64,000 nt of DNA from Flaccisagitta enflata. Its lineage: Eukaryota. The first letter of the stretch is position 1. Each line of letters opens with the position of its first letter. The notes beneath the pieces are model-generated. The model ran no database searches and was not told the origin of the DNA. It worked only from the letters and a program-made list of their open reading frames with translations. Position numbers and translations under genes: made by a program. Where the stretch lies: the NCBI GenBank assembly GCA_965153355.1, contig OZ231126.1, forward strand, positions 5,332,001 through 5,396,000, given 5' to 3'. This document shows positions 12,357-62,192 of the stretch, in pieces.

Positions 12357-12498
12357 GTTCCCTGTTGAGCCATTTCTTGGAGCCGATTTATTTGGACAGC
12401 GTGATTTTGGGTTCTCTTTACCACGCCGAGCATTTATCCCGCGCCATGTACGGCCGGCTTGGACTCGATTGGCAACGCGACAAGCCCGTGCCCGAAGG
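12357..12498 (+). CDS. ADARB1: ADAR2 exon ([35 protein letters not shown]...PEG)
   Basis: caaag acceptor, gg|gtaagt donor, phase 1-2; matches ADAR2 GSLLSxFxEPIY...LGSLYH..HLSRAMY. Confidence 0.93.
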
Positions 12499-13088
12499 GT
12501 AAGTCATGGAAGGGCAAGGGACAAGTGCCAGGGCTGCGAATTAGATCCGAGGACAAGGGCAGGGCAAAGGGGAAAGTACAAGCGCCAAGGTTGCGAATCA
12601 GACTTGGAGGGTGAATGAGGGTAGGGCAAGGGGTGAAGACAAGTAACGGGGCTGTGAAACCGATCTAGAGATGAGTGAGTGTAGGGCTAGGGGCAAAAAC
12701 TAACGCCAGGGCTGCGAAGTAGATCTAAGGGTGAGTGAAGGTTAGGCCAGGGCCAAGGGGGCGAATACAAGAACCAAAGTGGCAAATCAGACCCGAAGGG
12801 TGAGTAAGGGTAGGGCAAGGGGCGAATACCAGCGCTAGGGCTGTGTCGATAATCTTGAACCTTCGGGGTGAGAACTGAGCGTGGACAGGTGATGACAACC
12901 GCTAGTCCACAAGTATGCAAATTAGATCTCATGGGCGAGTTAAGGGGAACTATGCCATATAAAAATATAGGCCTTATCAAGTTTTACTGATCATTGTGTT
13001 GTGTATATGAATTATTAACATTTGATTAGGCGCTGATGTATCGCTTATTATTGTTGTTCAATTACTGATACAAAGTTGTTGTCTGCAG

Positions 13089-13219
13089 GTATCGACTGAA
13101 CAAGCCGCTTTTGACGGGCATTTCCAACTCTGAGAGTCGACAGCCGGGAAAAGCGCCCAATTTCAGCGTCAACTGGACTCTCGGAGATGCGGGATTGGAG
13201 GTCATCAACGCCATGACAG
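13089..13219 (+). CDS. ADARB1: ADAR2 exon ([44 protein letters not shown])
   Basis: tgcag acceptor, g|gtgaca donor, phase 2-1; [13 protein letters not shown] motif of ADAR2. Confidence 0.93.
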
Positions 13220-14839
13220 GTGACAGAATCACTGTTTGTGTTAATTGGGGTCTTGTCTGGATGTTGACGGGTGACAAAATCACAATTTCTAATAATCAGG
13301 GTCGTTTCTAGTTTCAGACAGGTGACTCAATTACAATTTGTATTAGTCAGGGTCTTTCCTGGCTATGTATTTTTACAGAAATGTTACTTGTATTGAATCT
13401 GGCTTATAAGATTTTGGTCGCATTGGATTATGGGCCAGAGACCTGTGCCGATTCTGTGTAGCGTGGTAGCAGTGCTACTTGGCAGGCAATCGTCAAAGTT
13501 ACGGAAAGAAAGAGGCAAAATAAGGTTAGGAAAGAAAGAATTCGCACAGATTCTGACTGATTTTGTCATAAATCCGGGGAAGAATTGAAACTGACACGCA
13601 AATTTGTAGTGGCTTTGACGAATTATGTGGCAACGTTTGCGCTGGTGATTCTATCTTTTGGTCTCGGAGTATTCATCATTTGCATATTGCAGCTTCATTT
13701 TTCAAACCAGCAAATAAATGCTCCTTTACAAGAAAGAAAATCATTCTAAGCGTCGAATGTTTCTTTATTCCTGTGATCAAGGAAGCGCCCGGTGAAAATG
13801 CAAATAAGCAAGTATTAATAGTCCAAATTAGGAATCTTTTCACTCACAAACATGATTGAGTTTCCATTTGAAGGAATAATAATTCTGAAAGATTATCAAA
13901 TTGTAGTTGGAATTCCCCGCTTCTCTGAGCGTCTGCTATGGCTTCTGATACAGCCATTACAGAGCCTCTCAAATGTGATTATTAGTCTGAAATCTGAACT
14001 GGTTCCTTTACTAGTTATATTATATTATCAGAGAAGCCGATTTTGCCAAGCTGCCGCGTAGCAAGGGAAATTTAGCACAAGCTGCCGCATTTTTAGGTGC
14101 GACAAAGCATCTTTATAACTGGCTTTGTTCGTCGGTCTGTCAGTAACGCATACGTTCGACGATCCACACGTCGCACCTTATTGGCCTACTAGGCCTTGTT
14201 CACATGTTCTTTGGCTATGGACTACCCCGTTTATCCGCAGTGCTCAATCCCTTTTCTTCGATATCATGACCTCGGTCAATTCCGATTTTACTTAATCACG
14301 GGTAGTCTTGTTGTTGAGCCGCACGCGCGCTCAGATCTGAGCGCCAGCGCCACAGCAGTCCCAACTGCATGCTTTTATGTTAAATTCTCCCAAACTGAAA
14401 GCTCGGTACCATTCCAGAAAACTGGTTAATTTTTTCTATACCTACATCCCTTTGAACACAACGTAATCGAGTATGAAAGTAATCCTCTTGAATGGAATTG
14501 CCATTTTGCATTGTTATCACGAGATCATCAGGCATTTATTCGGTCAAAGGAATAAAGAAATGTTCGACATCGAGAAGGATTTTATTTTTGTTTTAAGAAC
14601 ATTAGCGATAGGAGTGCATAAAAATTTTAATTGCAATATGCAAATGAGTATTCCACCGAGACAAGCAGCAAACAGTTTCACGAAATCGAAAATTTGGCAA
14701 TCGTCTATTCGTTTATTTTCCCCCTTAACAGCCCCCTTGGCCACATCTACCGCACTTTGGCGCTTGCCTGCCGCGTAGCATTGCTACCATGCTACACACA
14801 TCCGGCACCTCTGTAATATTATATTATATTATATCCTAG

Positions 14840-15073
14840 GGAAAGACGAAGAGTCCCGTCCTTCGCGGTTGTGCAAGCGTCGGTTTTTCGAGCGTTGGAC
14901 TCAATTGGCTGGTCGCGTCAACGCCGTCGTGGATTCGTCCCGGAAGCCCTCGTCAGGAGACGTCGACGTCGACCCGCTCAAACTGGCCGCCAGATGTTAC
15001 TTCGACGTCAAACAGGAAGCCCAAGATTATCATTCCACTAAAACGGACATGGTCTCCGCTTTCGCCAAGCAAG
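14840..15073 (+). CDS. ADARB1: ADAR2 exon (GKDEESRPSRLCKRRFF...YFDVKQEAQDYHSTKTDMVSAFAKQG)
   Basis: cctag acceptor, g|gtatac donor, phase 1-1; SRLCK motif. Confidence 0.9.
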
Positions 15074-16709: not shown

Positions 16710-16768
16710 GTTTGGGACAATGGGTTAAAAAGCCTTTGGAGCAGGACTCGTTTGATTTGATGTCCTGA
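16710..16768 (+). CDS. ADARB1: ADAR2 last coding exon (GLGQWVKKPLEQDSFDLMS*)
   Basis: pyrimidine tract + cacag acceptor; GLGxWVxKPxEQD C-terminal ADAR motif; TGA stop. Confidence 0.92.
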
Positions 16769-17946
16769 TAGTCGTCGATTTGATGTCCTAATTGTCATCA
16801 TATTTCCAGAATAACTTTGAATCTGTCACGGCTGAAATTTTCATGAAATGACATCAATGTTCTCGATTTCTGCCATTCTCTCTTTCACGTAAGAGAAAAA
16901 AACTATCCATGCGCCAGCGATTATAATTCATTTTCCAGACTTCTTTAACTGTAAATACCTTTTTGAATGTGTATGAAAATCATTTGTTGGAATCTTATGC
17001 ACCACAATTTGTGGGTATCGTCTACAACAGTACAACATGGTATCATTCGCGTTATATTTGATAGTCCATTTATGGTAATTCTGATTGATTTGCCGCAAAT
17101 TGCATGGGAAAAAAAGCTTTCAAGGAAAATTCTATAAAATCAGTTTCAGTTTGATAGATAAAGTTCAGCACGTTGAGTATACTAGTTACTCTCTTGCTAA
17201 TGAATGCTGTATATCGGCTTTCGAAAGGAAGCATTAACTTTGGGAGAGTATGACTTCTAGATGAAGAAAACTTCAATTACCAGATTGATCTCATTTTAAA
17301 AATATTTGAGCAAATTACACAAGACAAATCGATCAAGTGATAGACCTTGTTTTGATTGCTCCCGAGTTTTCACACTAATTTCGGATTGTTGAGAGATTTA
17401 ATTTGTTACAGCCAAACCTGCCAAAACAGATCTGAGAGTACCGAATCCTCCTAAAACGAACTCAAATCCTCAATTCCATCTTTTACGAGGCAAGTTCATT
17501 TTTGAACGAAACTAGGCCGGAATGACGGCTACCGAAGCCGCGTGCGGGTGGGCAGGGGCAGTAATGAAATACTGTTCAATCAGTAGTTCAACACTACACT
17601 AGTCGATTTTCTTAAACTTGTTCAACAAGTAGTTCAGTTTATTTTTTAGAAAGGAGCATTGATAAAAAAATATGCTCCTGAGTACCTTAAAAGCTAATTG
17701 TTATAGATAGACCGACCGACCAACCGACAGACTGACGTAGCGAGTTGAATGTACGCGTGACCCGCGGTTTTATCTGATCTCGTACCTGAAGTTCTGTCAC
17801 ACATGCAATTTTCATGTTAGTCTTTTATTTGCTTGATTTATTGGTTTAGTCACAAGACTTTCGCATCCCCGGAATCATAGAAAAGGCGCTACAATCTGGA
17901 TGGTCTAACTTTTCCAAACAGAAGGCAAAATAAGGAAAGAGTTGCA

Positions 17947-19534: not shown

Positions 19535-19899
19535 TTGCACCAAAGTTGAACGGAATAGTTTGCAGAACAAGCACTTTCAAAAGGCCTAACAAAGCAACGA
19601 TATTCTCTGAATAAAGTGACGCGGAATTTTTGTCCGCGACGGAATACCATTCCGACGCGGACTATAATTCGAGGCGGGTGGGTGTCGTCGTCGTCGTCGT
19701 TGTCGTTGTTGTCGTCGTCCACACTTTTAAAAATGGGCTAACTTTTGAACGCCTTGACCGATTTGCTTCATATTTGGAGGTCCGAAAAAAATAAAGGATC
19801 TTTCCTTTTCGGAAAAATGAAAAAATCCCCGGTTACCAGGATAAAATCGCTTGTCCTTCTGGGTCTTGCGTGTCTAGTGTCGCTTGTCCCCCGCATATG

Positions 19900-21950
19900 T
19901 TGTTGTCCCCTACATGTGTTGCTTACCCCCGCAAGTGTTGCCCACCCCTGCAAGTGTTGGAGATCCCCCGAAAGTGTCCATTACCCCCCGCAAGTGTCAT
20001 TTACCCCCCGCAAGTGTCCATTATCCCCCGCAAGTAGTCATTACATCCCACAAGTGTTCATTACCCCCCGCAAGTGTTTATTACCCCTCGCAAGTGTTCA
20101 TTACCCCTCGCAAGTGTTCATTACCCCTTGCGAGTGATCATTACCCCTCGCGAGTGTTCATTACCCCTCGCGAGTGTTCATTACCTCGCAAGTGTTCATT
20201 ACCCTCGCAAGTGTTCATTACCCCCCGCAAGTGTTCATTACCCCTCGCAAGTGTTCATTACCCCTCGCAAGTGTTCATTACCCCTCGCAAGTGTTCATTA
20301 CCCCTCGCAAGTGTTCATTACCCCTCGCAAGTGTTCATTACCCCTCGCAAGTGTTCATTACCCCTCGCAAGTGTTCATTACCCCTCGCGAGTGTTCATTA
20401 CCCCTCGCGAGTGTTCATTACCCCTCGCGAGTGTTCATTACCCCTCGCGAGTGTTCATTACCCCTCGCGAGTGTTCACTACCCCTCGCGAGTGTTCATTA
20501 CCCCTCGCAAGTGTTCATTACCCCTCGCAAGTGTTCATTACCCCTCGCAAGTGTTCATTACCCCTCGCAAGTGTTCATTACCCCTCGCAAGTGTTCATTA
20601 CCCCTCGCAAGTGTTCATTACCCCCCGCAAGTGTTCATTACCCCCCGCAAGTCTTCATTACCCCTCGCAAGTCTTCATTACCCCTCGCAAGTCTTCATTA
20701 CCCCTCGCAAGTCTTCATTACCCCTCGCAAGTCTTCATTACCCCTCGCAAGTCTTCATTACCCCTCGCAAGTCTTCATTACCCCTCGCAAGTCTTCATTA
20801 CCCCTCGCAAGTCTTCATTACCCCTCGCAAGTCTTCATTACCCCTCGCAAGTCTTCATTACCCCTCGCAAGTCTTCATTACCCCTCGCAAGTCTTCATTA
20901 CCCCTCGCAAGTCTTCATTACCCCTCGCAAGTCTTCATTACCCCTCGCAAGTCTTCATTACCCCTCGCAAGTCTTCATTACCCTCGCAAGTCTTCCTTAC
21001 CTTACATTGTTTTGCAAGTCTTGTTAGGCAAGTCTTCATTACCCCAAGTCTTCATTACCCTCAAGTCTACCCCCGCAAGTCTTCATTACCCCTCGCAAGT
21101 CTTCATTACCCCTCGCAAGTCTTCATTACCCCTTGCAAGTCTTCATTACCCCTCGCAAGTCTTCATTACCCCTCGCAAGTCTTCATTACCCCTCGCAAGT
21201 CTTCATTACCCCTCGCAAGTCTTCATTACCCCTCGCAAGTCTTCATTACCCCTCGCAAGTCTTCATTACCCCTCGCAAGTCTTCATTACCCCTCGCAAGT
21301 CTTCATTACCCCTCGCAAGTCTTCATTACCCCTCGCAAGTCTTCATTACCCCTCGCAATTCTTCATTACCCCTCGCAAGTCTTCATTACCCCTCGCCAGT
21401 CTTCATTACCCCTCGTCAGTCTTCATTACCCCTCGCAAGTCTTCATTACTCCTCGCAAGTGTCCACTAACCCCCCACTTATCATTAGCAAGTTGTTGCTG
21501 GCAAGTGTCCCTTGTCTTAAACAAGATTTGTTTGTGAAAGGCAAGGGCTTGTTATGGGTAAGTGTTGCTTGTCCTGGGCCTGTCGCTTGTCCTGGGCAGT
21601 GTCCCTTGCCCTGGGCAAGTGTAACTTGTCCTGGTCCTATGTTGCCTTTCCTGGGCAAGTGTCGCTTATCCTGGGCAAATGTCACTTGTCCTGAGTTTAT
21701 CTGCGGAGCGTTACTTGTCCTGAGTGAGCATTGCTTCTCCTGGGCAAGTGTCCCTTGTCCTGGGCGAGTGGCCCTTGTCCTGGGCGAGTGGCCCTTGTCC
21801 TGGGCGAGTGGCCCTTGTCCTGGGCGAGTGGCCCTTGTCCTGGGCTAGTGGCCCTTATCCTGGGCAGGTGTCCCTTGTCCTGGGCAAGTGTCCCTTGTCC
21901 TGGGCGAGTGTCCCTTGACCTGAGCAAGTGTCCCTTGTCCTGGGCGAGTG
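19900..21950. repeat. 20-bp minisatellite (TTACCCCTCGCAAGT[G/C]TTCA) grading into a second 20-mer (CCCTTGTCCTGGGCGAGTGG)
   Basis: direct inspection; source of the spurious 654/431/317-aa ORFs. Confidence 0.95.
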
Positions 21951-24168
21951 TTATCAGTTCTTGGTGGGTGTAACATGTGGTGTAATTTCTTTGGAAAAAT
22001 ATGTCAAGTAATTTGCCCAAGCTCTCTTAATGTTAGGAGGTCAATGAATCTTGTTAGTTCTGTGGTGAGGAAAGGGATCAGGAATTGCAGTCTGCCTTGG
22101 TAATAGGAGACAAGAAAGATGGAAGAAGAAATTCAGTGCACTTTTCAGTATGAGGACAAGGTATATAATGTAAGCCAATTGCATTCCAGTGACTGCCATG
22201 GTCGGGCAAGATAGTCAGTGACAGATCCGCCTGAGATGATCAGTTACGCAAATCAAGAATTCACTTCTTTGCATAATGATGACTGAGAATCCAATGATAA
22301 GTCTGCCTTGGCGAAACAGGTAAAGAAACTAGTAACAAGGGTGCCTTGGCTGAAGGGGAAAAAAAGTCAGTTACAATCCTCTCTTGGGCACAGTTAACGA
22401 GAAGTCCATTAAGTCTGCCTTGCTAATGGGGCTACCAAATCTAGGACTAATCCCATCTTTGGTAGTAGCCAAATTGAGGACAAGGAATCCTGTGACAACT
22501 CTGCCTTAGGTAAGGGGGAATAGGAACTTATTGACAAGTCTGCTATGTGATGAAATGAAAACTTTTATGGTACAGTAGGATATGATATACAGTGAATTGT
22601 TCATTTATGCATGGGGGAGAAATAAACCGGTATTCTTGGGCGGAAAGGGCAAAAAATTTATTGACAACCGCTCAGAGGGACAAGGAACCCATCATGTTTG
22701 GACATTGACTCCAGTCTGTTATGAGAAAAGTGGACAAGAAATACAGCAACAAGGTGAGAATATCAGCCCTCTATTCATTCTACTCTGGTTCAGATAGGGA
22801 CAAGAAATCTATGTTAGGTCTACCCCTGGCTTAGGGAAAGTGCAATTTACCATGTGCCACTGGATCTGCCATGGATTACTTAAGTAGGGCTAGCAAGCCA
22901 ATGAGACTTGCTGAAGGAGGCATTAAATCCACTGACCAGCCTTTCTTGGGCAAGGGGGGGGGGGCAAAGAAAACAGAAACAAGTGTCCCTTGGGTGAAAA
23001 GGGCAAGAAATCAGTGGCAATTCTGTCTTGCATGAAAGGGACAAGATGTCCAACAAATCTAGCACTAATCCTGCTTTGGGAAAAGAGGAAAAGGAACCCA
23101 GTGACAACATCCTTGGGTAAAGGAGAAAAGGGTTTGTTGAGGAATGAGTTATGAATTATCACCACAGTAAAATAAGACAAAACATCTAGTGAACTTTTCA
23201 TTCATGTATGGGGACATAGAATCCAGTGGTCAAGTCCACCCTAGATGAAAAGAGCAAGAAAGTCACCAAGTTTGGACAATGAATACAAAAGCTGTCTGTG
23301 GAAAGAGAAGGGGGACAAGAAATACAGTGATAAGTCAGCGGTAGTGTAGGAACAGAAATTCAGCGCAATCATAATTTAATTCTCCTTCAAATCAGGAGGA
23401 CAAGAATTTTATTGTAATTCTGCCCTACAACAAGTAATTCAGTGACACTTCCATGATTAAAGTGGGGGGATAAACCAGCAGGACTAACTTCCTCTTCAAA
23501 TAATCCACTGACAAGTTTAGCTTGTCTGAAGGGGTCAAGAAAACAAGTGACAAGAGTAAGATGAAGGGGTCAAGATATTAGTGACAAGAAATGAAACAAA
23601 TCTACCTTGAAAAAAGGGATAACTTTTCTGGCTCTAATCTGGCCTTTGATGGTGAATCTAGTGTAAAGTCTGCCTTTGGAAAAAAGTCCAGTGACTAAAA
23701 ATCAAGTGACCAGTCGGCCTTGGGCAGAAGGGACGGGGATCCAGTGACAAGTTCGCCTAGTGCAGAAGGGACTTGTAAGGAATTCAGTGTCAAGAATGAC
23801 ATGGGCAGAAGGAACAAGGTAAGTGAGCAAAATGAGCTAAAATGGTCAAAATCACCCTCACAGATGAGCAGCTATGCACATGAACATGTTTTCTTGTATT
23901 TGCGTACTCAAACAAACATAGATACACTCTTTTATTGATCCTACACAAAACCATGAAAAATAAAAAAAATTCAATTTGAATTTTGCATACATAAATCTTT
24001 AAAAATTCATAACGCAAAAAATATTTGTCATAGAGCATTCTACTAGGCATCAAATAAAAGAGAATTGTCAAATTTACTTACCCTATCAATTTTATTTGAG
24101 GGCTCATTTGCTCGGTGGAGATTCCCAACTTTCAAATAAGAAAATGAAAACCATGTTTCTCTCAAATA

Positions 24169-25074: not shown

Positions 25075-25190
<116 letters not shown>

Positions 25191-33066: not shown

Positions 33067-33067
33067 G

Positions 33068-40701: not shown

Positions 40702-40844
40702 ATGGCGTCTGCCGACGTGATTTGCGACTTATGTCGCGATCCCATCGTAATTTACGCGACCGGCAGCTGCGATCATTCCATCTGTCACACCTGCGCCACC
40801 AGAATGAGGGTCCTTTGCAAACAAAACTACTGCTCCATTTGCAG
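40702..40844 (+). CDS. ZNF598: ZNF598/Hel2-like E3 ligase, exon 1 with C3HC4 RING (CDLC...CDHSICHTCATRMRVLCKQNYCSIC)
   Basis: ATG 40702; RING spacing and RMRVLC motif typical of ZNF598; first ag|gtatgt donor of a repeated set. Confidence 0.9.
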
Positions 40845-41410
40845 GTATGTGCCACCAGAATGAGGGTCCCATGCAAACAAAATCACTGCCCCATTTGCAG
40901 GTATGTGCCACCAGAATGAGGGTCCTACGCAAACAAAACTACTGCTCCGTTTGCAGGTATGTGCCACTAGAATGAGGGTCCTATGCAAACAAAACCACTG
41001 CCCTATTTGCAGGTATGTGCCACTAGAATGAGGGTCGTATGCAAACAAAATTACTGCTCTATTTGCAGGTATGTGCCACCAGAATGAGGGTCCTATGCAA
41101 ACAAATCCACTGCCTCATTTGCAGGTATGTGCCACCAGAATGAGGGTCCTATGCAAACAAAATTACTGCTCGATATGCAGGTATGTGTCACCAGAATGAG
41201 GGTCCTATGCAAACAAAGTTACTGCTCCATTTGCAGGTATGTGCCACCAGAATGAGGGTCTTATGCAAACAAAACCACTGCCCCATTAACAGATATGTGC
41301 CAACAGAATGAGGATCCTATGCAAACAAAACCACTGCCCTATTTGCAGGTATGTGCTACCAGAATGAGGGTCCTATGCAAACAAAATCACTGCTCCATTT
41401 GCAGGTATGT
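40795..41410 (+). repeat. 56-bp tandem repeat x11 spanning the ZNF598 exon 1 donor
   Basis: donor positions 40845 + 56n up to 41405 (41293 mutated to AT). Confidence 0.95.
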
Positions 41411-41704
41411 CCCTGGGGACCGGGGAAGGCTCTGGAATCATTCCATCGCTCCACTCGCGGTTAGAAAGCCCAGGAGCGAAGTTTTGGTCCGCATGTTGAT
41501 AGCCTGTTTTGCCATTCACGATTCGTTGAATTCTGACATTCATTCTAATTTGATGATGTTGTAGTGTTGATGTGTACGGTGTTGCCGATCTTCCTCGTCT
41601 GGGGTAGGTTCGTGGCTGAGCTTCATGACACCTTAATTCCGGTAAATTTTTGTCAAAAATTCTTGTTTAAGTGAAAGCTGACAATTGTTATCTCCTGTCC
41701 TAAG

Positions 41705-43633: not shown

Positions 43634-43859
43634 GTTAGTTATGAATATGAGCGACAAGTCGTTCGGCGCCTAAAGTAAGCCAGTGACTTTGTTGCATTTG
43701 ATTGGTTGTTGGTGTGATGTCATGCGATGAGAATTGTACGACCGCAAAGCTCAGTGAATGGAATATTGATTTGATGAGTGAATGGTAGAAGAGGAGATTG
43801 CTTGAGAAGGAACGTAAGGCCGCTTGTTCAATTCCCTGCTATACAAAACTTTACTCCAG

Positions 43860-50118: not shown

Positions 50119-50190
<72 letters not shown>

Positions 50191-50250
50191 ACACACACAC
50201 ACACACACACCGCACACACACCACACCGCACACACACACCACACAACACA

Positions 50251-50339
<89 letters not shown>

Positions 50340-52714
50340 GGTAAACGGTAAGCAATCTGTATCAATCAATATCAGTTGGAAAGAACGACAATGCTATCAA
50401 TATCAAAAGGATATATCACACGCAGAAGATCAGTCCATGTCCATCAGAAATCTTCCTCTTATACACAAACAAACAAACAAACAAACAAACAAACAAACAA
50501 ACACTAACTCACTTGTCCATCCTTTAGAACCGGAGTGAGTTTTTGCCACTCGCCATCTTGAAAAATTTCCACTCGACCGGCATCTTTTCCCAAACGCCAC
50601 CAGCGATTTCCTAATGGAACTAAGCGAACTCCCAATTCCACATCCGCGATTTGTGATTGCAGTGTTTTTCTGGAAGTATAGGAGGAGTGTGGCAATCAAC
50701 AAAGATGAAGGCGAAGTTGCAATGGGCAAAAAGAAAGAATAGGTTTTCATTCGTTTTGTAGGAGGGATAGGCATTTGAAAGCACACTTTTTAATCACAGG
50801 AAAAACGGCTTAAAATGTAGTATAAAGAGTAAGCTTACAAAGCCCGTCAGTATTATGATTACATTACATTACTGCGACGAACTTACCGCGATTCTTCGAT
50901 GGATTTCTGCAATTGCAACATTTGCAGTGTTTGATAGTACTTCGACGAGATGCGGGCAGCTAGCTCACCTGAGGTGGTGGGGAAAAAATATTGTCACCGA
51001 CTTGATCGCTACGCAGCGTAGCGCCATAACGCCTTTTTTTTTGCGCTCGGTTTCATGGATTGATCATTACACTTTTTTAGTCGTGGACTAGCGACTCTAT
51101 AAGAGGCTTTGTCCGTCCGTTGGTCGGTTGGTTGGTCCGTGGTGATCGAGTTGAAAAGTGGGAAAACACGCATTTCCACCCCTGCCCACCCGTCCGCGAC
51201 TGGTATTGGCCGTGTATCCGGCCTTGTTTTTTTTTAAGAGACCAGTTTATAAGAGACATGAGCCTGAGATTTGCCGAAATTTTAAGAAAACAAGTGACGC
51301 GGGGTCACAACATCGTTGCGGACGGGTGGGCAGGGGCATCCCACCCCACTTCTCACCAAAAGTTCCCCCCTCACATGCACATAAAGCATCTAAAACGCTC
51401 ATTTCCTCACTTTTCGACTCGTGTCCACAGACGGACGGACGGACGGACGGACGGACGGACGGACAAAGCCTCTTATAGAGTTGCGTGTCCGCAACTAAAA
51501 ATAAGAGAGTGCCCAGGCTGAGATTCAGCTTCGGCCATTTTTGAAAACAATTTTATTTAAGTTTCTTATCTAAAAAATGAATTTGATTCAAATTTTTCAG
51601 AAATATAGGTTGTTTATCTTTAAAAATAACTTCTTTTCTTAGTTTGCCTATGAAATCAGGTATTATATTAAAGAAAATATAACAATTATCAAGTTTAAGA
51701 TAAAACTGCTCTAAATAAGGTATTTTTAAACAATCTAAACATTTATGAACATTGAACAAATTAAGAACACTTAAAGAGAAATTCAGGCTGAAAACAGCCG
51801 AAAATTAAAGAACACCCAGGCCGAGTTCAAAAAAGCTGTCTCTAATATAAAAAAGTGTATTCATTACATTTACCGCCGCCGGCCTTATGCTTAAATGGCG
51901 AACATCATAAGTAACAAGTATTTCAATACACCGAGTGCGTTTGAGTCTTCATTATGTTCCCTACCATCTTTTGAATTCTGCGGCTTCGCTTCAACGTAGA
52001 TGCCCATCAGAACGAGGATCAAACCTATTAGGAATTTCATCTTCTATTAGAAAAAGAAGGAAAGGAATAGAACAAAAAACGAAGAAAAACGAAGAAAAAA
52101 GACTAAGAAAAACGAAGAAAAAAGACTAAGAAAAAAGTTTCCCGAATCTCGGTTTCGCAGCTAATCTGTGTAAGCTGTAGATGTAGTGACGAAGGGCTAT
52201 GTTTTAGTTTACAATGGGTGGAACGAGAAGCTAAAAAAATTCGCTTGGACGTAGTTCAAGGGCGTGTCATCGTCGTGTTAAAGAAAACTCAGTAAAAGGA
52301 CTCAATGTGAAGGTGTGTTTTAATGGTTGTAAGCGCGGTTACATTGGCCTGCTCAGTCGCTCGCTACTAGCATTCGCTAGAAATGATTTTACGCAGAATC
52401 GGGACCTTAAGTTACTGACTGACTAGTCGAGCCTTTCAGACATCGCTTTCAACCACATGTCAAGCGACTGAAATCATCCATTTGTATTTATATTACAATC
52501 CAATGGACCCGTTTCAAACGGTATTCCGCCTATAACAGATGCTGATTCTTTATTTCTTCTGCTTGTTTTCTTTTATTTCTTATATTAGCTTTAATAAGAT
52601 TCAAGTTTATAACAAATAACATTTGGTGGTCACTTCAAATCCGTTGGAGTGGCATTGAACTGTATTTTCTATTCACGTCTATTTATCTTTACTTGCATTC
52701 GTTTTACTGAATAG

Positions 52715-52885
52715 GGGATTGCCTGGCCGTGGACGCGGGCGGGAACGAGATCGGGGTGAAGAGGCGCCGCGCGGTCGAGGTCGAGGGCGAGACGACCGAG
52801 ACAGTCCTAGGACAGTCGGCAAATTAGACAGGAATACGCTAGACGATGGAGGAGGAGGAGGCGGAGGAGGAGAGACGCCTAACAG
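52715..52885 (+). CDS. ZNF598: ZNF598 exon 6, RG-rich low-complexity segment
   Basis: aatag acceptor, ag|gtcggt donor, phase 2-2 fits neighbours. Confidence 0.75.
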
Positions 52886-53183
52886 GTCGGTGACTGAGGT
52901 GTCGTCTTTTCTCTCTCTTGATTCAAAACTAGCGCTCTATCTCAGTAACACGTCCCTCCCTTTCCCACCCACCTCCCACTCCTTTTAAACCAACCATTTT
53001 ACATTGTGATTGTTCCTCATCTCTCATCTCTTTGATTTTATGCTTGCCCTTTTACAGAAGCTGTTCGTTTGGTCTTATCCGTCTGTCAATATATTCATGT
53101 GTATGCACATGTGGACGATGCTGTCCCCTGCGCAAATGAAATCTTCTGATATTTTCCGTTTCTTGTGCTTCCTTTCCTTTCAG

Positions 53184-53303
53184 AAACAGTCCGCTTCCTG
53201 AAACGACTTTTCGACTTGATGAAGTGGCCGAGTTTCCGACGCTTGACAATACCAAGCCCATTCCTCAGTCAACGCCGGCTGTTTCCAAATCAAAACCAGT
53301 CCG
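53184..53303 (+). CDS. ZNF598: ZNF598 exon 7 (...DEVAEFPTLDNTKP...)
   Basis: strong tttcag acceptor, cg|gtatga donor, phase 2-2; FPxL motif as repeated in ZNF598 proteins. Confidence 0.75.
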
Positions 53304-53339
53304 GTATGATGCATTGACGCTTCTTCTTTGACAAGTGTA

Positions 53340-54175
53340 CCGTCACACGGGGCTAATCGGGACAGCAGGGCCTAATCGGGACACCAATCTAATTAATGGT
53401 TGTATATGGGATATTTCAAACCCGGTCAACTTTTTTTTTTTTTATTCATCACTTTCACCATATTCAGTTTATATATGGTGACTTATGGCGGTTTATATTG
53501 TTTAATAAGTTTTTTTAAAGGTTTTAAACTTAAAATATAAACAAGGTGGAAAAAAGCAAAAATCGACATAGCTAAAAGATTATTTCTTTAACTCAACACT
53601 GGATAAAGTGCTCAATGTGATCTTTTTGTATCTTCAACTTAAAGAAGTCAGTGACTCTGAGGACGATTCATGAGGGGTTTTCGAGAAAACTTGTTTGTTT
53701 ACAAACTTAATTTAGGTAAATAATCAATTTTTCTAAAAACACGGGGCTAATTGGGACACCAAATTAAGCTATACTAAGGGTCATAAAATCAATAAATATT
53801 CATGGGATGCCATTAATTAAGTCTAATTAGGGACATTCATGCCATAATTACAATAAAAGTCTGACCGGGTTAAGAGTTTTCGATTTTTTCATGTTAGATC
53901 TTGAAAAACCGGTAAAATATGGCTTGAGCGGGGCTAATCGGGACAACACAGTAAAGTAATTGCGTCCCGATTAGCCCCACTATGGGGCAAATAGGGACAG
54001 TGCACTTTCTTTTAAATCCTCACCAAACGAGTCAGTAATGGATTCGGGTTCTTGGCGTGCAATAAGCCTCTCAGCAGTGGTAATTAAGGGTGGAGGATGG
54101 TGGGATGTATCTTTGGAAATTTCAATGATACAGAGCAGAATTTCCAAAAAGTGTCCCGATTAGCCCCGTGTGACT
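53340..54175. mobile_element. MITE with TIR gtcacacggggctaatcgggaca and internal repeats of the same motif
   Basis: inverted termini; ggggctaatcgggaca-like motif recurs at ~53370, 53743, 53930, 53965 (inverted). Confidence 0.7.
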
Positions 54176-55109
54176 ATTTTACTATCTTAACTATGAAAAG
54201 TGGAACAATATCCCTCACTATACTCATACTGAAATAAGTGGAAGAGAGCTATTTCGTAACTGACCACGCCGGCGCCAAAAGTTTTGATTAGGAGCAAATC
54301 TTCCATAGACGTTTCTGTATAAATATTGACACGATCGTAGGTTAGACCTTGCCGGCTTTTGCTTACATGTTTACTGCGTGTTTTCTTTCTAAGCACATCT
54401 TCATGCGGTCACCAGTGGGGGGGGGACTTTTCAGCAGGGAGGTCATAGGTGTCATTAGCTTATGTGATTCTACAAACTGCCTCCATTTACTATTATAAAC
54501 CAAGTTTCATGACCTTCTGACAAGTCCCTGATAGCGGCGCCACCCCCCCCCCCCCCCATTTTTTAAGGGCCAAATGGTTTACAAAAAATTGCTCCCATTG
54601 AATCCTATGATGATTGAAGGGGGGGGGGGGTGGCGGCCCTATCAGGAATATGTCAGAAGGTCATGAAACTTGGTATATCTTTTTAGTCGCGTACTACGCG
54701 ACTCTAAACCCCGTTTTGTCGGTCCGTCAGTCTGTCACACTTTGTTTTTTTTTGGGTTTTTGCGGTTTTTGGCCTGGTTTTGCTCCTGCCCAAATGATCA
54801 AGTGACCTCAAATACGGCCCCTGCCCCCCCCCCCCGCACGCGACTGGGGTAGCCGTGTATCTGGCCTTGTTATTATAATAAATGGAGGTATTTTGTAGAA
54901 TTACATAGGTTTCTGAGACCTAAGACTTTGTTACCCCCACCCTGCGTTACAGCCCTTCTTCCCTCCTGTGTTCGTCCCCACTATGAGCCAGATCAGCGCA
55001 GCTAAAGAAAATTCCCATGTTTACCCAGCCTCTTACCACCCAGCAACCACCCCAAGAGGCTCAAACCGCCTTTTTATATCCCCCACCTGCCTATCTTTCT
55101 CCAATGCAG

Positions 55110-55257
55110 GGAGGAAGAAGAAACTTACATCGTGTTCTCTGAGAGCGTTGATCCTAAAACGATGAAGCCCAAAGAAGGATCAGCGGCAAAAGTCTCCTCT
55201 GGACTGAAAGCGTTTAGGACGGTTTGGACCAACGACAGCGCAATCGACAATGATCAG
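55110..55257 (+). CDS. ZNF598: ZNF598 exon 8 (EEEETYIVFSESVDPK...VWTNDSAIDNDQ)
   Basis: atgcag acceptor, cag|gtaaat donor, phase 2-0; open frame. Confidence 0.72.
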
Positions 55258-56671
55258 GTAAATGACAATGAACTAAGTCAAGCTGAGAGTCGCGTTCAGG
55301 AGGGTATGGACCAACGGCAGCGCAATCAACAATGATCAGGTAAATGACAATGAATTAAGTCGAGCTGAGAGTCGCGCTAAGGATGGTATGGACCAACGAC
55401 AGCGCAATTGACAGTGATCAGGTCAATGATGAACTAAATCGAGCAGAGAGTCACGTTCAGGACTGTTTAGACCAACGACAGCGCAATCGACAATGATCTG
55501 GTCAATGATGATGAGCTAAGTCAAGCTGAGAGTCGCGTTCAGGAAGGTTTAGACCAACGACAGCGCGATCGACAATGATCAGGTAAATGACAATGAACCA
55601 AGTCGAGCTGAGAGTCGCGTTCAGGATGGTATGGACCAACGACAGCGCAATCGACAATGATCAGGTCAATGATGAACTAAGTCGAGCAGAGAGTCACGTT
55701 CAGGACTGTTTAGACCAACGACAGCGCAATTGACAATGATCTGGTCAATGATGATGAACTAAGTCAAGCTGAGAGTCGCGTTCAGGAAGGTTTGGACTGG
55801 CAACAGTGCAATCGACAATGATCAGGTAAATGACAATGAACTAAGTCGAGCTGAGAGTCGCGTTCAGGATGGTATGGACCAACGACAGCGCAATCGACAA
55901 TGATCAGGTCAATGATGAACTAAGTCTAGCAGAGAGTCGCATTCAGGAAGGTTTAGACCAACGACAGCGCAATCGACAATGATCAGGTAAATGACAATGA
56001 ACTAAGTCGAGCTGAGAGTCGCGTTCAGGATGGTATGGACCAACGACAGCGCAATCGACAATGATCAGGTCAATGATGAACTAAGTCGAGCAGAGAGTCA
56101 CGTTCAGGACTGTTTAGACCAACGACAGCGCAATTGACAATGATCTGGTCAATGATGATGAACTAAGTCAATCTGAGAGTCGCGTTCAGGAAGGTTTGGA
56201 CCGGCAACAGTGCAATCGACAATGATCAGGTAAATGACAATGAACTAAGTCGAGCTGAGAGTCGCGTTCAGGATGGTATGGACCAACAACAGCGCAATCG
56301 ACAATGATCAGGTCAATGATGAACTAAGTCGAGCAGAGAGTCACGTTCAGGATGGTTTGGACCAACGACAGCGCAATCGACAATGATCTGGTCAATGATG
56401 ATGAACTAAGTCAAGCTGAGAGTCGCGTTCAGGAAGGTTTGGACCGGCAACAGTGCAATCGACAATGATCAGGTAAATGACAATGAACTAAGTCGAGCTG
56501 AGAGTCGCGTTCAGGACAGTTTGGACCAACAATAGCGCAATTGACAATGATCAGGAAAATGACGATGAACTAAGTCGAGCTGAGAGTCGCGTTCAGGACG
56601 GTTTTGACCAACGACAGCGCAATCGATAATGATCAGGTAAATGACGATGAACTAAGTCGAGCTGAGGTCGC
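55210..56671 (+). repeat. 79/82-bp tandem repeat x18 spanning the ZNF598 exon 8 donor, with 243-bp higher-order unit
   Basis: 18 gatc[a/t]g|g[t/a] junction copies from 55257 to 56636. Confidence 0.95.
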
Positions 56672-56904
56672 ATGTGAGTGTAGAAGTGAGCTATAGCTAC
56701 CAAAAGAACTAAGCGACTGCCGACCAACCGCTTAAAGAAAAGCAAAATGTTTTTCTGTCAGAACCTAGAGGGTATGTCCGTCTGTCCGTCCGTCGTTCGG
56801 CCAGTTCAACATGCATGTTCTTATTAATGGTCGGAGTTGATTCATTCACAAGGAGATATGTCTTTCTAATTTTCCACGACTCTTTTATCTCATCTAAATT
56901 TTAG

Positions 56905-57075
56905 GCGGCCTTTCCTACGTTGGGTGAGAGTTTACAACCGAAGAAAAAGCCCGAGCCACCTCCAAAAGAAACGCCCACATCCAAACAGCAAAACTCAGGC
57001 TGGACTCTGGTCGACGACGACGATGACGACCATCCCTGGTCTCAACCACAACAACCACAACCACAACCCAAAAAC
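56905..57075 (+). CDS. ZNF598: ZNF598 exon 9 (AAFPTLGESLQPKKKPEPPP...QPQPKN); ends at gtgagt donor, or reads on to TAA at 57093
   Basis: ttttag acceptor in phase 0; second FPTL motif; c|gtgagt donor. Confidence 0.7.
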
Positions 57076-57821
57076 GTGAGTACAAGATTGTAACCCCATC
57101 CAAAAAACGATCTAACGTGATCATAATCATAACCAGAGGGCGTGAGTGAATGGCCATCTCTGACCGCGTCGATAATCTGAAAGCGTGTTTTCATTCACAC
57201 TTCATGAATGGGCACGTTATGTTTAAAATGAAAATGCACAAGCCACAAATCATTCGCTATCTGCTTGTCTGTCTCTCTCTGCGTCTAGCTTTGTTTCTCT
57301 ATGTTAGTCGCTCTACCCGTTTTTCTGTCTGTGTCTCTCTCAGAAAGTTTGTTTGTTTGTCTGACTCTGTGTATGAGTGCGAGCGGTTGTCTGTCTGTTT
57401 CTATTTTTGTATGACTCTGTCTCCCGTCGTTCTCAAAAAACGGATATACATTTTGAAATTTGGAAATCGTCCACAAGTTGGTGCCCTCACGACCACAACC
57501 ACCGCTATCTTGAACCGCAAGCTGACTTGCATCCTGACTCATGCGCAGAAAAATGAAATGGAGAATGCGTATGGTAGATAGGTTGTACAAAAAGCGATAA
57601 CAGGCAGTTATAACATATCGGTAATATCGGCAAAATAAGCATGTACCAGTTAAAGCTTTCACACTTAATACAAGGGTTTTGGTTTTTTGTAATTGAAGCG
57701 TGCCTATTGTTAGAGATATTATTATTTCCCTAAATTTTTAAGGAGTATCTTTTTGTCGTTTTGTCGTTGTGGTAATTGTTTTTGTTTTAAGGAGACTGTT
57801 GTTGTTCTTGTTGACTAGTTT

Positions 57822-58229
57822 CTAAGAATCTCGCGCCTCTCCGTTCTCTGATCGTATATGTGCATCGTCTATGGCGATCTTCGGCGGTGGGAGTTGGGTT
57901 GTTTCGTCTCCATCTATCTTCCCGTTCACTGGTTGGTCATCGCCATCTTTAGGCCTCACATGCCCATTTTCCTTCACCACCATCTCCCCGTCATCGCCCT
58001 CTGTCGGTACAAAATGTCCATTCTTGGCGCTCTCTTTCGGCCCCACGTGTCCATTCTGTTCGCCCTCTGTCGATACCAAGTGTCCATTTTCCTTCACCTC
58101 GACATGCCTCTCATTGACATCATCTTTCCGCTCCGCATCTCCGTTTTCTCCCTCTCCGTCCTCGTGGCCCGTGGAGCCCTCGGCTGCCGTACTTTCCGCT
58201 TTGTCCAAGTGGTGTTGATACTTGTACAC
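57822..58229 (-). CDS. TRIM2/3-like last exon (VYKY + ~130-aa acidic tail), TAG stop
   Basis: aacag acceptor, phase 0; completes HCFK-VYKY; 135-aa open frame. Confidence 0.85.
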   Translation of the reverse strand: MYKYQHHLDKAESTAAEGSTGHEDGEGENGDAERKDDVNERHVEVKENGHLVSTEGEQNGHVGPKESAKNGHFVPTEGDDGEMVVKENGHVRPKDGDDQPVNGKIDGDETTQLPPPKIAIDDAHIRSENGEARDS

Positions 58230-58350
58230 CTGTTTTATAAATTGTCAATTGATAAAAGCCGGTTTAACATCTTTCTTGACAAACTTTTTCTTCCATTCTG
58301 ACTTGATTGATTAGCAAGGATTTGGCAGCGATTAATTCTTTTTGCCTTAC

Positions 58351-58413
58351 CTTGAAGCAATGATTTCCGCTGTCTGCCACTACGATATTGCCGTTAGATG
58401 TCACCGCGACTCC
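58351..58413 (-). CDS. TRIM2/3-like exon (GVAVTSNGNIVVADSGNHCFK)
   Basis: ttccag acceptor, aag|gtaagg donor; VVADSGNHCFK last NHL repeat. Confidence 0.92.
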
Positions 58414-58613
58414 CTGGAAAGAATTGCGAAATTCCAGATTTACCCACTTTTTATGTTTCATAGAAAAGAAAAGAAAAGAGAAAAGACTTGTATGTCACGC
58501 ATGATAAAATTGATGAAGATCGCACTTAGACATGAAAAGAATTGGTGTTGTTGGTGAAATGGTCCGATAAAACAGAATGAATAATTGGATATTCACACAG
58601 CAAAAACGTCTAC

Positions 58614-58682
58614 CTGCGGTCCATATAAGGGGTCCAATGATGTGTTCAGCCGGAACAAGTGTTTGCCGCCTTTTGAAAAAAC
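58614..58682 (-). CDS. TRIM2/3-like exon (VFSKGGKHLFRLNTSLDPLYGPQ)
   Basis: ttag acceptor, cag|gtagac donor; NTSxDPLYGPQ is a TRIM2/3 signature. Confidence 0.9.
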
Positions 58683-59160
58683 CTAACCGGATAGATAGAA
58701 TCAATCTATTCAATAAGCATATTATTCCTGAGCAATGTTTAGTTGTAAACTGATTCATCACATTTGCATTTGAAGGAATGAAAATGTTTTTAGATGCGTC
58801 CTCGCATCTCTATAAGAGGGTCTGTCCGTCCGTCCGTCCGTCCGTCCGTCCGTCCGTCCGTCGGTCGGTCCGTCGGTCGGTCGGTCCGTCCGTTACGCTT
58901 TCTTGGAAATCGCGTTTTTCGGCTATTTTAGGCCTCGGTGAGATCCTCTACTGAATCAAATGATCGACAAACATATTTTGAGAGCCTCCTTTACTACTCA
59001 GTCGTTCATCAGTCAGTTCGTCCATCTGTCAGTTCGTCCATCTGTCTCTATTCACGTCACATGTTCAATACACGCAGAGACACAGTCCGGACGCATCTTT
59101 GCCCGGTCGGGCTTGTTCTTTTTCATCACGTATGTCTTTGAAATGATCAAGTGACTGAAC

Positions 59161-59308
59161 CTGTACTGAGTCTGCGAGCCAATCGGCGACTACGATGCGA
59201 TCTTGTTGGTCGACGGCAACGCCGGTTGGATACGCCAGAATGCCCGGCACGTACCCTCCCAACTTGGAAGTGAATGACATGCCCGAACAGAGCCCATCGC
59301 TGGACCGC
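59161..59308 (-). CDS. TRIM2/3-like exon (RSSDG...GILAYPTGVAVDQQDRIVVADWLADSVQ)
   Basis: cgccag acceptor, cag|gttcag donor; PTGVAVD...I.VADW NHL repeat. Confidence 0.85.
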
Positions 59309-60026
59309 CTGGCGAAGGGTGGTGACAAAGGGTGGTATCGAAACAGCGTAAGAAGGGTGAGCGGCGCAACTGTTTTTGTGCCCCTGCCGACTCGAATTAC
59401 TGCTCCTGCCTCCTCCCCATTCGCATTTTTGTGGCTGCCCACCCGCAAGCGAATACTCATTGTTCCGGCATCCGGCCTCGGTATACCGTGTGCGAGGAAT
59501 CGGTGCTTAAGGATTTGAAATTTATTTTTTTGATTTTACCTGTGACAATTTACATTTCTAGAATTGATTTTAAAAAAAAAAACGCCTTTGATCTTCCCGC
59601 ATGGAGAGAGAGAAGGTTCCCCCGCTTTGTTTTAAAACACACATAAAACCAGTTATTTTTGCTTTTACCGGCAGTAGCTACAGTTATGCCTTTTTTATAT
59701 CGTTAATGAGGGAAAGAATGTTTTTGCCCTTTATATTCTCTATTGCAACCCATGCCGTCGCGACGGTTGCGTTTGCCTATTTTAGTCACTGGGAACATGT
59801 TAGCGGGTGGGATTTACGATATGAAAAGTGGAAAAATCCCTCACTATACCCAAACTAAAATATATGAAAGAGTTTTTGTGCACCTTCATTTACTGGTTTT
59901 CCATTAAATGTTTGAGCATTACCCAAAACAAAACTCAAACCAAAAGGAGTCAAAAGCCAATCAATTTCTCCCACCTTGCCGAGGCTAACAAGCGTACCCA
60001 TGTCTTAATTCTTGTCCTATTGTTAC

Positions 60027-60201
60027 CTGGCCGTCCACGAGGATCCGCTGTTGGCGGTAAAGGCGGTGGTGGCGCTTCTGCCCGCGCACGAGTTGGCCGT
60101 TTGATGCGAGTGCGAGCGCGAGAAGAGAGGACTGGGCCATGATGACGTCATTGTGGAAGCCGAAGCCAATCCGCTGCGTGGTCGCGGTGGTTTGCTCGAC
60201 C
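60027..60201 (-). CDS. TRIM2/3-like insertion exon (GSSKPPRPRSGLASAST...SGSSWTAR)
   Basis: gtcag acceptor, ag|gtaaca donor; its phase 1-2 is needed to join the phase-1 upstream exon to the phase-2 downstream exon; GC-rich island. Confidence 0.72.
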
Positions 60202-60629
60202 CTGACATGTTTTTTATCAAATTATGTGATTTTATCAAATTATGTAAGGTCGCGTTGATGCTAGATAGGTCTTTTGGTGTGGCGACTCACAGATAGTCTG
60301 TCTCCACTCAGTTTTCTCAACATTTGCAAATATCACAGTTTTTCACATCTCCTCCTGCGCATTTATCCTCCTACGCGCGGCTCACCAAACTCATATTTTT
60401 ACTTTATTTTCATGAAAGCAAGAATAATGGGACGCTTTTTTACCCATCTAGCTGGTGCAATGTCTCCTTTGACTGATTTACAGGGCGCTGTTGTTGTTTT
60501 TGTGTTTTTTATTATGGCCTCCTTTTCACTTTCAATTCCTCTTCACTCTATGCCTCCTCCTTCCCATTTATCGCTACATCCCTTAGGGCTACGTTCCTTA
60601 GGGCGTTGCTGTTTAGGGCGCGGAATGGC

Positions 60630-62192
60630 CTTTCCATCTCCGTTGGTGTGGTTTGTGTTGATGGCAGTGGCGTGAAATGTTCTAACCATTGTTTCTACAG
60701 GTGAAAATTGGGCAATGCCGTATTGGTTATGACTTTTGTCCATACGGCGGTAATCACCATAGCTACTAGTGCCGTTGAAAGTTTGTTGTTGGGTTCTTTG
60801 TCTTACCATCTCTTTCAGCTTTATTATACTTTATCTGGTTACGTCGGTGTTGGTGGTGTTGTGGAATGTTTGTTGCGACTAATGCTAAGTCTTATCTCTC
60901 TCAGCCTTGTTTGTTGCATGTTGCATTGGTGGTAGAAAAGTTGTTGTGACCAATGCCTTATTTTACCATCTCTCAGCTTCATTAGTAGGGTTGGTGGTGG
61001 CATGGAATGTTGTGACCAATGCTTTATCGTACTCTTTTTAGTCGCGAACTAGCGACTCTATAAGAGGCTTGGTCCGTCCGTCGGTTGGTTGGTCGGTTGG
61101 TTGGTTGGTCGGTCGGTTGGTCCGTGGTGATCGAGTTGAGAGAGTGCGAAAACGCGGATTTCCGCCCCTGCCCACCCGTCCGCGACTGGTATTGGCCGTG
61201 TATCCGGCCTTGTTCTTTACTTCAATGGTTGCGTTTGAGGTGGCGTGAGATGTTTGTTGTGACCAATGCTTTATCTCACCATCTCTCTCTACTTCATTTG
61301 CTGTGTTGGTGGTGGCGTGGAATGTTTGTTGTGACCAATGCTTTATCTTACCATCTCTCTTCTTCATTGATTGCGCTGGTGGTGGTGTTGAATGTTTGTC
61401 ATGACCAATGCTTTATCTTACCATCTCTCTCTACTTCATTTGTTGCGTTGGTGGTGGCCTGGAAGGTTTGTTGTGACCATTGCTTTATCTTACCATCTCT
61501 CTCTACTTTATTTGTTGCGTTGGTGGTGGCCTGGAAGGTTTGTTGTGACCATTGCTTTATCTTACCATCTCTCTCTACTTCATTGGTTGCGTTGGTGGTA
61601 GCGTGGAATGTTTGTCGTGACCAATGCTTTATCTTACCATCTCTCTCTACTTCATTGGTTGCATTGGTGGTGGCGTGGAATGTTTGTTGTGACCAATGTT
61701 TTATCTTACCATCTCTCTCTACTTCATTGGTTGCATTGGTGGTGGTGTGGAAGGTTTGTCGTGACCAATGCTTTATCTTACCATCTCTCTCTACTTCATT
61801 GGTTGCGTTGGTGGTGGCGTGGAATGTTTGTCATGACCAATGCTTTATCTTACCATCTCTACTTCATTGGTTGCGTTGGTGGTAGCGTGGAATGTTTGTT
61901 GTGACCAATGCTTTATCTTACCATCTCTCATCTTCATTGATTGCGTTGGTGGTGGCGTGGAATGTTTGTTGTGACCAATGCTTTATCTTACCATCTCTCT
62001 CTACTTCATTGGTTGCGTTGGTGGTGGCGTGGAATGTTTGTCGTGACCAATGCTTTATCTTACCATCTCTCTACTTCATTGGTTGCGTTGGTGGTGGCGT
62101 GGAATGTTTGTCATGACCAATGCTTTATCTTACCATCTCTCTCTACTTCATTGGTCGCGTTGGTGGTGGCGTGGAATGTTTGTTGTGACCAG
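60630..62192 (-). repeat. ~72-bp tandem repeat spanning the donor of the TRIM-like exon 62256-62134; 13 clear copies plus degenerate ones, interrupted by a HINE-like element
   Basis: gatg|gtaaga(minus) copies at 62132, 62062, 61990 ... 61350, and gtgaga at 61278. Confidence 0.92.

Follow-up and report, generated by a model that had tools for sequence, protein, structure and literature searches.

In this study we analysed a 64,000-nucleotide window of the Flaccisagitta enflata genome (contig OZ231126.1, positions 5,332,001 to 5,396,000 of the forward strand) and identified four tandem arrays that lie on 5' splice donors of two genes, ZNF598 and ADAR. At each of the four homology-supported junctions (exon ends at 12498, 13219, 40844 and 55257) the first unit of the array is continuous with the exon and holds the exon end, the donor and the start of the intron. 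Such a structure is already known from the so-called mirages of amphioxus and from a variable number tandem repeat (VNTR) of the human F7 gene; what is new is the host and the notable density, whereas the mechanism is not. The arrays are probably mirage-type minisatellites, which arose by tandem duplication of DNA across the junction, expanded and were tolerated as nearly neutral passengers.

Tandem Repeats Finder (TRF) was run on the whole window and reported four of five arrays at the places named in an earlier inspection of the letters (the sequence-only reading). The fifth, a degenerate array 3' of 12498 to which TRF was also blind at score 30, was seen in the sequence and in a repeat self-comparison, and the arrays are real. 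The coordinates of these and all further features are collected in Table 1. In exon 1 of ZNF598 the unit comprises the final 50 coding nucleotides followed by GTATGT, in perfect register, and every unit ends in TTTGCAG/GTATGT (the slash marks the exon end). CAG/GTATGT is kept in 10 of the 11 copies, and nine of the ten downstream copies are identical at this 9-mer; exon 2 begins at about 41705, where the protein P0001 continues in frame. The unit at exon 8 of ZNF598 is composed of 48 nt of exon end, the GT and 32 nt of intron. Its 18 donors comprise eight CAG/GTAAAT, five CAG/GTCAAT, four CTG/GTCAAT and one copy that is devoid of GT, and in 7 of the 17 downstream copies the donor is identical to the authentic one. 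Both remaining arrays belong to ADAR. The donor AGG/GTAAGT at 12499, for which GT and AG were verified, lies within the first unit of the degenerate array, whose units each end in an AAGG/GTGAGT-like motif. This array is old and decayed, and its junction copy (12491-12535) shares 80% identity with 12792-12836 in the repeat self-comparison. The second ADAR array has a 51-bp unit consisting of 6 nt of the exon 3' end, the GT and 43 nt of intron. Across the four junctions the exon share of the first unit amounts to 50 nt (40844), 48 nt (55257), about 8 nt (12498) and 6 nt (13219).

The exon ends are secure because the proteins of relatives (one for ZNF598, four for ADAR) join in frame at the first GT, and do not depend on the reading of a GT alone. 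The ADAR relatives P0149, P0150, P0151 and P0153 cross both ADAR junctions (VPEG/YRLNK and AMTG/KDEES). Several statements of the sequence-only reading were borne out here: the exon-proximal copy keeps the frame, as the relatives' proteins continue in frame from the first donor of each junction, and read-through soon meets a stop, namely at once (12498) or at 5 (40844), 25 (55257) and 29 codons (13219). The units were also correctly described as unrelated, since the five share only words of 7-8 nt and, within the window, recur nowhere but in their own arrays. Its claim that five donors seed arrays stands for four of them, which lie on homology-supported exons; the fifth, assigned to a TRIM-like exon, is unsupported and is treated below.

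Table 1. Mapped genes, exons and tandem arrays of the window, with the evidence for each
Feature	Position	Strand	Basis
ADARB1-like gene, 3' two-thirds	exon bounds 1425, 2256-2391, 5209-5274, 12357-12498, 13089-13219, 14840-15073, 16710-16768	+	Pfam; relatives' alignment
ADAR (ADARB1-like) deaminase exon	12357..12498	+	Pfam A_deamin positions 159-196; P0149, P0150, P0153 aligned up to 12499, resuming 13090
Degenerate array, ~6 units of 59-65 bp (~62 bp)	12491..12880	+	read in sequence; repeat self-comparison families D1-D4; probe z=11.8
ADAR exon ending CAG/GTGACA	13089..13219	+	Pfam A_deamin positions 204-254; relatives 93-98% identity over 13090-13221, then 14840
51 bp x2.8 array, 73% matches	13214..13356	+	TRF; sequence; junction-spanning probe z=6.0
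MTP18/MTFP1 first coding exon	donor 38143		Pfam
ZNF598, nine mapped exons	40702 to 57075	+	tblastn P0001
ZNF598 exon 1 coding part (RING finger), donor CAG/GTATGT	40702..40844	+	tblastn P0001 residues 1-48, 81% identity
56 bp x11.0 array, 88% matches, no indels	40795..41410	+	TRF; copy table
Unique rest of ZNF598 intron 1	41411..41704	+	sequence; acceptor ctaag/G at 41705
Antisense SRCR-domain gene nested in ZNF598 intron 5	45585-52111	-	GT-AG spliced RNA contig
ZNF598 exon 8, donor CAG/GTAAAT	55110..55257	+	tblastn P0001 residues 376-434; next exon 56905 in frame (NDQ/AAFPTLGES)
82/79 bp x18 array, 243-bp x6 higher-order repeat	55210..56671	+	TRF; copy table
ZNF598 exon 9, donor AAC/GTGAGT	56905..57075	+	P0001 residues 436-477; X9 RNA contig 56920-57062
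TRIM2-like gene, NHL-repeat exons 63789-63611, 59308-59161, 58682-58614, 58413-58348	58348..63789	-	Pfam NHL; tblastn P0121, P0122, P0127, P0130, P0131; X9 contig 59158-59307
72 bp x13.8 minisatellite in large TRIM2-like intron	61214..62198	-	TRF; sequence; copy table
Putative TRIM-like exon, 123 nt, good acceptor (T-rich tract + CAG) and donor	62134..62256	-	unsupported as coding exon

The joins of the homologues, the premature stops and the depth of the X9 RNA contigs indirectly suggest that the upstream-most donor is used at the four junctions. In both ZNF598 arrays any later donor would add 56 or 79-82 nt with stops. The X9 contigs had a depth of 0 over 55340-56673, which holds copies 2-18 of the exon 8 array, and exon 9 was covered. 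Moreover, the X9 contig of ZNF598 contains 647 nt 5' of exon 5, compared with 643 nt of coding sequence plus 4 nt under first-donor splicing; this length is consistent with use of the first donor but not decisive.

The arrays differ in age, as the sequence-only reading had proposed: at one end of the range the copies match at 88-91%, and at the other they have decayed below TRF detection, with both ADAR arrays decaying. The exon 8 array shows an A-B-C higher-order structure of 243 bp, in which weakened donor variants (GTCAAT, CTG/GTCAAT) were amplified in blocks. This structure together with the different ages points to the turnover of ordinary minisatellites. Unique, non-repetitive intron sequence follows every array (41411-41704, 56672-56904, 13357-14839 and roughly 12880-13088). 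Since this sequence and an acceptor of its own lie behind each array, the arrays were added to pre-existing introns, and the earlier suggestion that they generate new introns does not apply here.

Sequences from other sources were also compared. Over 55340-56673 the DNA run X2, which represents a second individual, had depths of 0 and 20 as compared with about 140 in X1, and this hole may be a polymorphism or a gap. A 31-nt pattern for the copy-to-copy joint of the exon 1 array gave no matches among metagenome contigs. A search with the ZNF598 exon 1 peptide returned three distant relatives with 47-56% identity, of which two were genomic and array-free and one had no intron. In the two metagenome contigs L001 (204-360) and L002 (232-375), the first ZNF598 intron comes after ICRQELTK. 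This is five codons 3' of where the intron of the window is placed, namely inside the R codon after CSIC. The intron has either changed its position or been gained independently.

For the comparison of donors and acceptors some features of the data set have to be considered. The minisatellite set consists of 29 arrays in the window (period at least 10, at least 2.5 copies) covering 15.6% of it, and all P values are post hoc because the window had been flagged for this very pattern. Donor and acceptor counts come from recognised exons; the region of 15-37 kb is mostly without a recognisable gene, and unannotated exons there are uncounted. The sequence-only reading had spoken of about 25 donors; 21 are documented in the window. 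Furthermore, 7 of the 40 probed junction coordinates were off by 1-4 nt (donors A1, A2, Z5, Z6, Z7 and T5, together with the T6 acceptor and either end of the Z5 intron, which read as non-GT/AG), and the 50-nt probes still cover those junctions. In this junction-probe test, junction-spanning copies were present at 4 of 21 donors and at none of 19 acceptors, a contrast that is not significant (Fisher one-sided p = 0.065). The S2 donor and the A4 acceptor also scored high, in both cases due to microsatellites that do not span the junction.

The term mirage is said to have been coined by Canestro et al. in 2002. In amphioxus, tandem repeats that extend across an exon-intron boundary were described in Adh3, the globins BflGb6 and BflGb9, troponin C, PGBD5, presenilin and RDH, with Adh3 and other loci reported before PGBD5 and troponin C. 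The repeats have units of 10-160 bp, are unstable in length and evolve in concert, splicing remains regular, and the mechanism that generates them is called unclear (PMC3087553, PMC3902484). The arrays of our window share with them the boundary-spanning unit that carries the splice signal, the occurrence in several genes of one genome and units of tens to about 160 bp in 2 to many copies; they may also share the regular splicing and the minisatellite-type turnover with concerted evolution. The host is no Branchiostoma. In contrast to the amphioxus mirages, which occur at both boundaries, those of the window lie on donors only, and with four in 64 kb they are dense; for amphioxus Adh3, somatic instability is reported. 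Similar results were described for human F7, in which the first monomer of a 37-bp VNTR in intron 7 spans the boundary of exon 7 and intron 7. According to Borensztajn et al. (2006), 5-9 identical donors stand in a row and the most upstream one, which is the one compatible with the protein, is used alone in a 5'-to-3' scanning-type choice, while the copy number is polymorphic (PMC1557585). As in F7, the first unit in our arrays holds the junction and is followed by downstream donors identical to the authentic one, most of those in the exon 1 array and fewer in the exon 8 array. Unlike F7, which is one locus with 5-9 copies, the window has four loci, in which the copies number up to 18 and the units measure 51-82 bp, and first-site choice is experimental in F7 whereas we infer it here.

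Intron gain by tandem duplication of an AG/GT-containing exon segment (the Rogers model) has reportedly been found by Hellsten et al. in 2011 and in a potato RdRp case. Likewise, in the exon 1 array the tandem duplication of an AG/GT places a GT in cis to a downstream AG. In contrast to this model no new intron has formed, and each array occupies the 5' end of an intron that has unique sequence and an acceptor of its own. Recursive splice sites, or ratchet points, consist of a juxtaposed 3' and 5' splice site (YnCAG/GTAAGT). The exon 1 units resemble them in that a pyrimidine-rich tract is followed by CAG and GTATGT, and splicing from a GT to a later AG would regenerate exon end and donor. However, the likeness is purely formal, the interval of a single unit is 56 nt and the other three arrays have no pyrimidine tract before the AG. 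Our literature search revealed neither a genome-wide survey of such arrays nor a report from anywhere but amphioxus and human F7.

Considering these parallels, the arrays would go back to a tandem duplication, through replication slippage or unequal exchange, of a short segment that straddled an exon-intron junction and comprised 6-50 nt of exon end, the GT donor and 6-45 nt of intron. The duplicate would then have grown and turned over like an ordinary minisatellite, presumably by unequal exchange. Extra copies lie 3' of the first donor and would remain intronic as long as the spliceosome takes the upstream-most donor, and they would be tolerated because this donor keeps the reading frame. 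By the same 5'-to-3' logic acceptor-spanning duplications would be harmful, since the first AG would draw repeat copies into the mRNA, and selection against them would explain why the arrays of the window lie on donors and not on acceptors. Most likely the arrays have no function. Of the two interpretations offered by the sequence-only reading, a donor-focused mutational process and tolerance-driven survival, the latter best fits the evidence and agrees with how this structure has been interpreted in amphioxus (PMC3087553) and in human F7 (PMC1557585). The sequence-only reading had recognised neither the named structure nor its literature.

Several observations weigh against an origin by duplication and mere tolerance. 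Under uniform seeding of one unit, 0.25-0.28 donor-spanning arrays are expected, compared with three detected by TRF (P 0.002-0.003). Moreover, three of the four arrays with a period of at least 50 bp lie on a supported donor, where 1.8-2.8% is expected for each (P = 4.4e-5). Tolerance alone cannot make such an excess, so that junctions may be favoured by some influence in addition to neutral tolerance. A blind coverage model based on the 15.6% of minisatellite predicts 3.0 donors inside arrays, which is about as observed; this model is inappropriate because an array covers a donor only if its unit was seeded across the junction, starting in the exon. Leaving aside the post hoc choice of the window, the junction bias within it looks real. 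Besides, the donor 9-mer of the exon 1 array was changed in 1 of 99 cells versus 37 of 517 cells elsewhere in the unit (Fisher p = 0.02), a weak hint of constraint which pure neutrality does not predict, with other blocks of the unit being equally invariant. Raw polyA RNA (X24) over 44001-64000 comprised 513 reads, all of them partial on dispersed repeats and none across a junction, and no contig of this species that spans one of the four junctions was seen. Finally, amphioxus also has acceptor-side mirages, and hence the scanning account of the asymmetry is not fully general (PMC3087553).

The bias could instead reflect a donor-linked mutational process, in which the 5' splice sites of this lineage are prone to tandem duplication, for instance by co-transcriptional R-loops or by replication stalled at U1-bound nascent RNA. 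We regard this as unlikely. The concentration of long-period arrays (51, 56, 72 and 82 bp) on supported donors and the presence of junction-spanning copies at donors only would be expected from it, and the fourth of these arrays, with the 72-bp unit, likewise begins at a donor-like site behind a good acceptor. The amphioxus authors also describe the way in which mirages are generated as 'unclear' and consider that the phenomenon may be general (PMC3087553). On the other hand, the P values were obtained in a window picked for the pattern, the contrast of donors and acceptors misses significance, amphioxus mirages occur at both boundaries (PMC3087553), and the units take in anything from 6 to 50 nt of exon and share neither a breakpoint nor a motif. 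The asymmetry is more simply explained by selection via 5'-to-3' site choice. From the donor-focused half of the earlier interpretation the over-representation of donors in the window remains, and no direct sign of such a process was seen in our data.

A broader proposal is that in this lineage 5' splice sites are the preferred birthplace of long-period minisatellites throughout the genome, with donors far exceeding acceptors and intron interiors, and that the exon 1 array, each unit of which is a pyrimidine tract with CAG/GTATGT, is in addition cleared by self-correcting recursive splicing. Taken as a whole this proposal is doubtful. If preferential birth at donors were true, it would imply a donor-linked duplication process or a very strong filter by 5'-to-3' site choice, and would offer a tractable system for the origin of mirages. 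Stacks of identical competing donors are natural experiments on 5' splice site choice and have been proposed as raw material for intron sliding and intron gain. Four donor-side arrays in 64 kb of an unrelated marine animal suggest that the phenomenon extends beyond the cephalochordates. With a strand-aware survey of the whole genome of this species, mutational bias and selective tolerance could be told apart. If such a survey gave no excess, the arrays would be an ordinary by-product of a minisatellite-rich genome.

It is very unlikely that the arrays are functional, that is, stacks of U1 sites selected for exon definition, for protection from premature cleavage or for nonsense-mediated decay via decoy donors. 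The exon 1 donor, perfect in all copies but one and more conserved than the rest of the unit, would fit such a role, as would the complete retention of GT in the 72-bp array. However, conservation in the exon 1 array lies in several blocks and not in the donor alone, half of the exon 8 copies (9 of 18) carry the weakened GTCAAT variants and one has lost its GT, and the older ADAR arrays have simply decayed. X2 apparently has no more than a part of the exon 8 array, being without most of it, and pseudo-sites in F7 are silent (PMC1557585). Moreover, no sign of decoy use was seen in RNA, either in the X9 contigs or in the X24 reads, which give no gene coverage.

Also very unlikely is chance or artefact, in which the arrays abut exons by accident in a minisatellite-rich window or result from assembler error. 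The blind coverage expectation and the post hoc choice of the window are compatible with chance. With regard to artefacts, X1 is perhaps the assembled sample itself, so that its contigs are not independent, and the joint pattern of the exon 1 array was not found in metagenome contigs. Nevertheless, in all four cases the repeat register begins inside the exon with the donor in the first unit, which is unlike random abutment, and the copies differ from the products of collapse or expansion errors in having substitutions of their own and a higher-order pattern. An X1 contig (56569-56946) runs past the distal end of the exon 8 array, and one from X2 stops at the edge of the 72-bp array. In amphioxus this structure was sequenced anew and demonstrated by reverse transcription PCR (PMC3087553, PMC3902484). 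An origin from transposons or introners was rejected, as the units are mutually unrelated and have no dispersed copies elsewhere in the window, and so was intron creation by duplication, given the unique intron remainder after each array.

The fifth case named by the sequence-only reading is a 72-bp array in a large intron of the TRIM2-like gene, with an ATG/GTAAGA-like motif in every unit and the GT kept in 13 of 13 tabulated copies. Older copies reach to about 60850 (extra copies at 60981 and 60873-60849), past a dispersed repeat that is inserted at 61041-61213. The exon proposed as its seed could not be upheld. In TRIM2-like homologues NHL repeat 4 (63771-63637 in the window) and NHL repeat 5 (59289-59158) are separated by just 2 residues and leave no room for it, and the 123-nt segment contains a stop in two of three frames (0 or 2 carried bases), both of which are imposed by the candidate upstream donors. 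X9 RNA contigs had a depth of 0 in the bin 62010-62676 that holds the segment, though both flanking exons were covered. A direct in-frame join from 63611 to 59308 exists, and the RNA contig begins at 59307. The segment may be a pseudo-exon or an unannotated poison exon, and that it is ever spliced in is a real but clearly minor possibility. The 72-bp array was also considered as a coding repeat and rejected; one frame is open for up to 143 codons, but it has neither homologue support nor RNA coverage. The join of NHL repeats 4 and 5 is in frame only from the weak donor AAA/GTTTTT (63611) and not from the strong AAG/GTAAAA (63640), and it adds about 10 residues absent from homologues. Because of this weak donor and these additional residues, the TRIM2-like gene may be a diverging or decaying paralogue.

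The window is rich in repeats and contains four recognisable genes and one nested gene. A Pfam scan of 389 open reading frames yielded just pieces of ADAR, NHL, MTP18 and SRCR, and most of the region of 15-37 kb has no recognisable gene. The nested gene was recognised from an X9 RNA contig of 905 nt that joins 52111-51965, 50669-50513 and 46081-45585 via GT-AG introns, and its last piece has a weak match to the SRCR domain (E = 1.2e-5, just under the Pfam cut-off). The closest proteins are of metagenomic or metatranscriptomic origin; they are 76-98% identical in the individual ADAR exons and 64% identical across seven exons of ZNF598. Named ZNF598 orthologues from a nemertean, a hemichordate, an echinoderm and a fish are about equidistant (50-57% identity over four exons), and no Branchiostoma protein was among the best 120 ZNF598 matches. 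The best named ADAR matches, Branchiostoma included, reach 56-68% identity. A search of protein representatives with the last large ADAR exon gave five matches, which were of no aid to exon mapping. Parts of the window sequence are present in many marine metagenome runs.

Further repeats were observed in and around these genes. The ADAR intron 5275-12356 contains a foldback-like structure at 4104-11649, in which two 24-bp TTAGGG-like arrays (8191-8824 and 9284-10146) are complementary in inverted orientation, their arms reaching 243 nt at 93-99% identity. On either side lie 16-bp arrays that face opposite ways (7637-8173 versus 10835-11079) and, further out, direct (TAAAATGACT)n arrays at 4104-4444 and 11438-11649. 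The whole looks like a foldback-type transposon with arms of tandem subrepeats. In the same intron a perfect (TC)44 microsatellite (12224-12311) ends 45 nt 5' of the ADAR acceptor at 12357 and could serve it as a giant pyrimidine tract. A 23-bp tandem duplication at 16754-16799, seen by eye and unreported by TRF, spans the ADAR stop codon (TGA 16766-16768) and is another tolerated duplication, since reading already stops at the first copy of the signal. A very abundant dispersed element, whose tails are (GTCC/GGAC)n or (GACC)n, was found at about 46000-47335 and at 50671-51520, 54673-54920, 58675-59341, 60676-61342 and 62677-63343; in both DNA runs it reaches a k-mer depth thousands of times higher than single-copy DNA, its depth in RNA is high too, and it is the copy at 61041-61213 that interrupts the 72-bp array. 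Two minisatellites with different 20-bp units, of 1.6 kb and 0.4 kb, lie at 19884-21951 with no recognisable gene nearby, and a 656-codon open frame in this region is due purely to the repeat.

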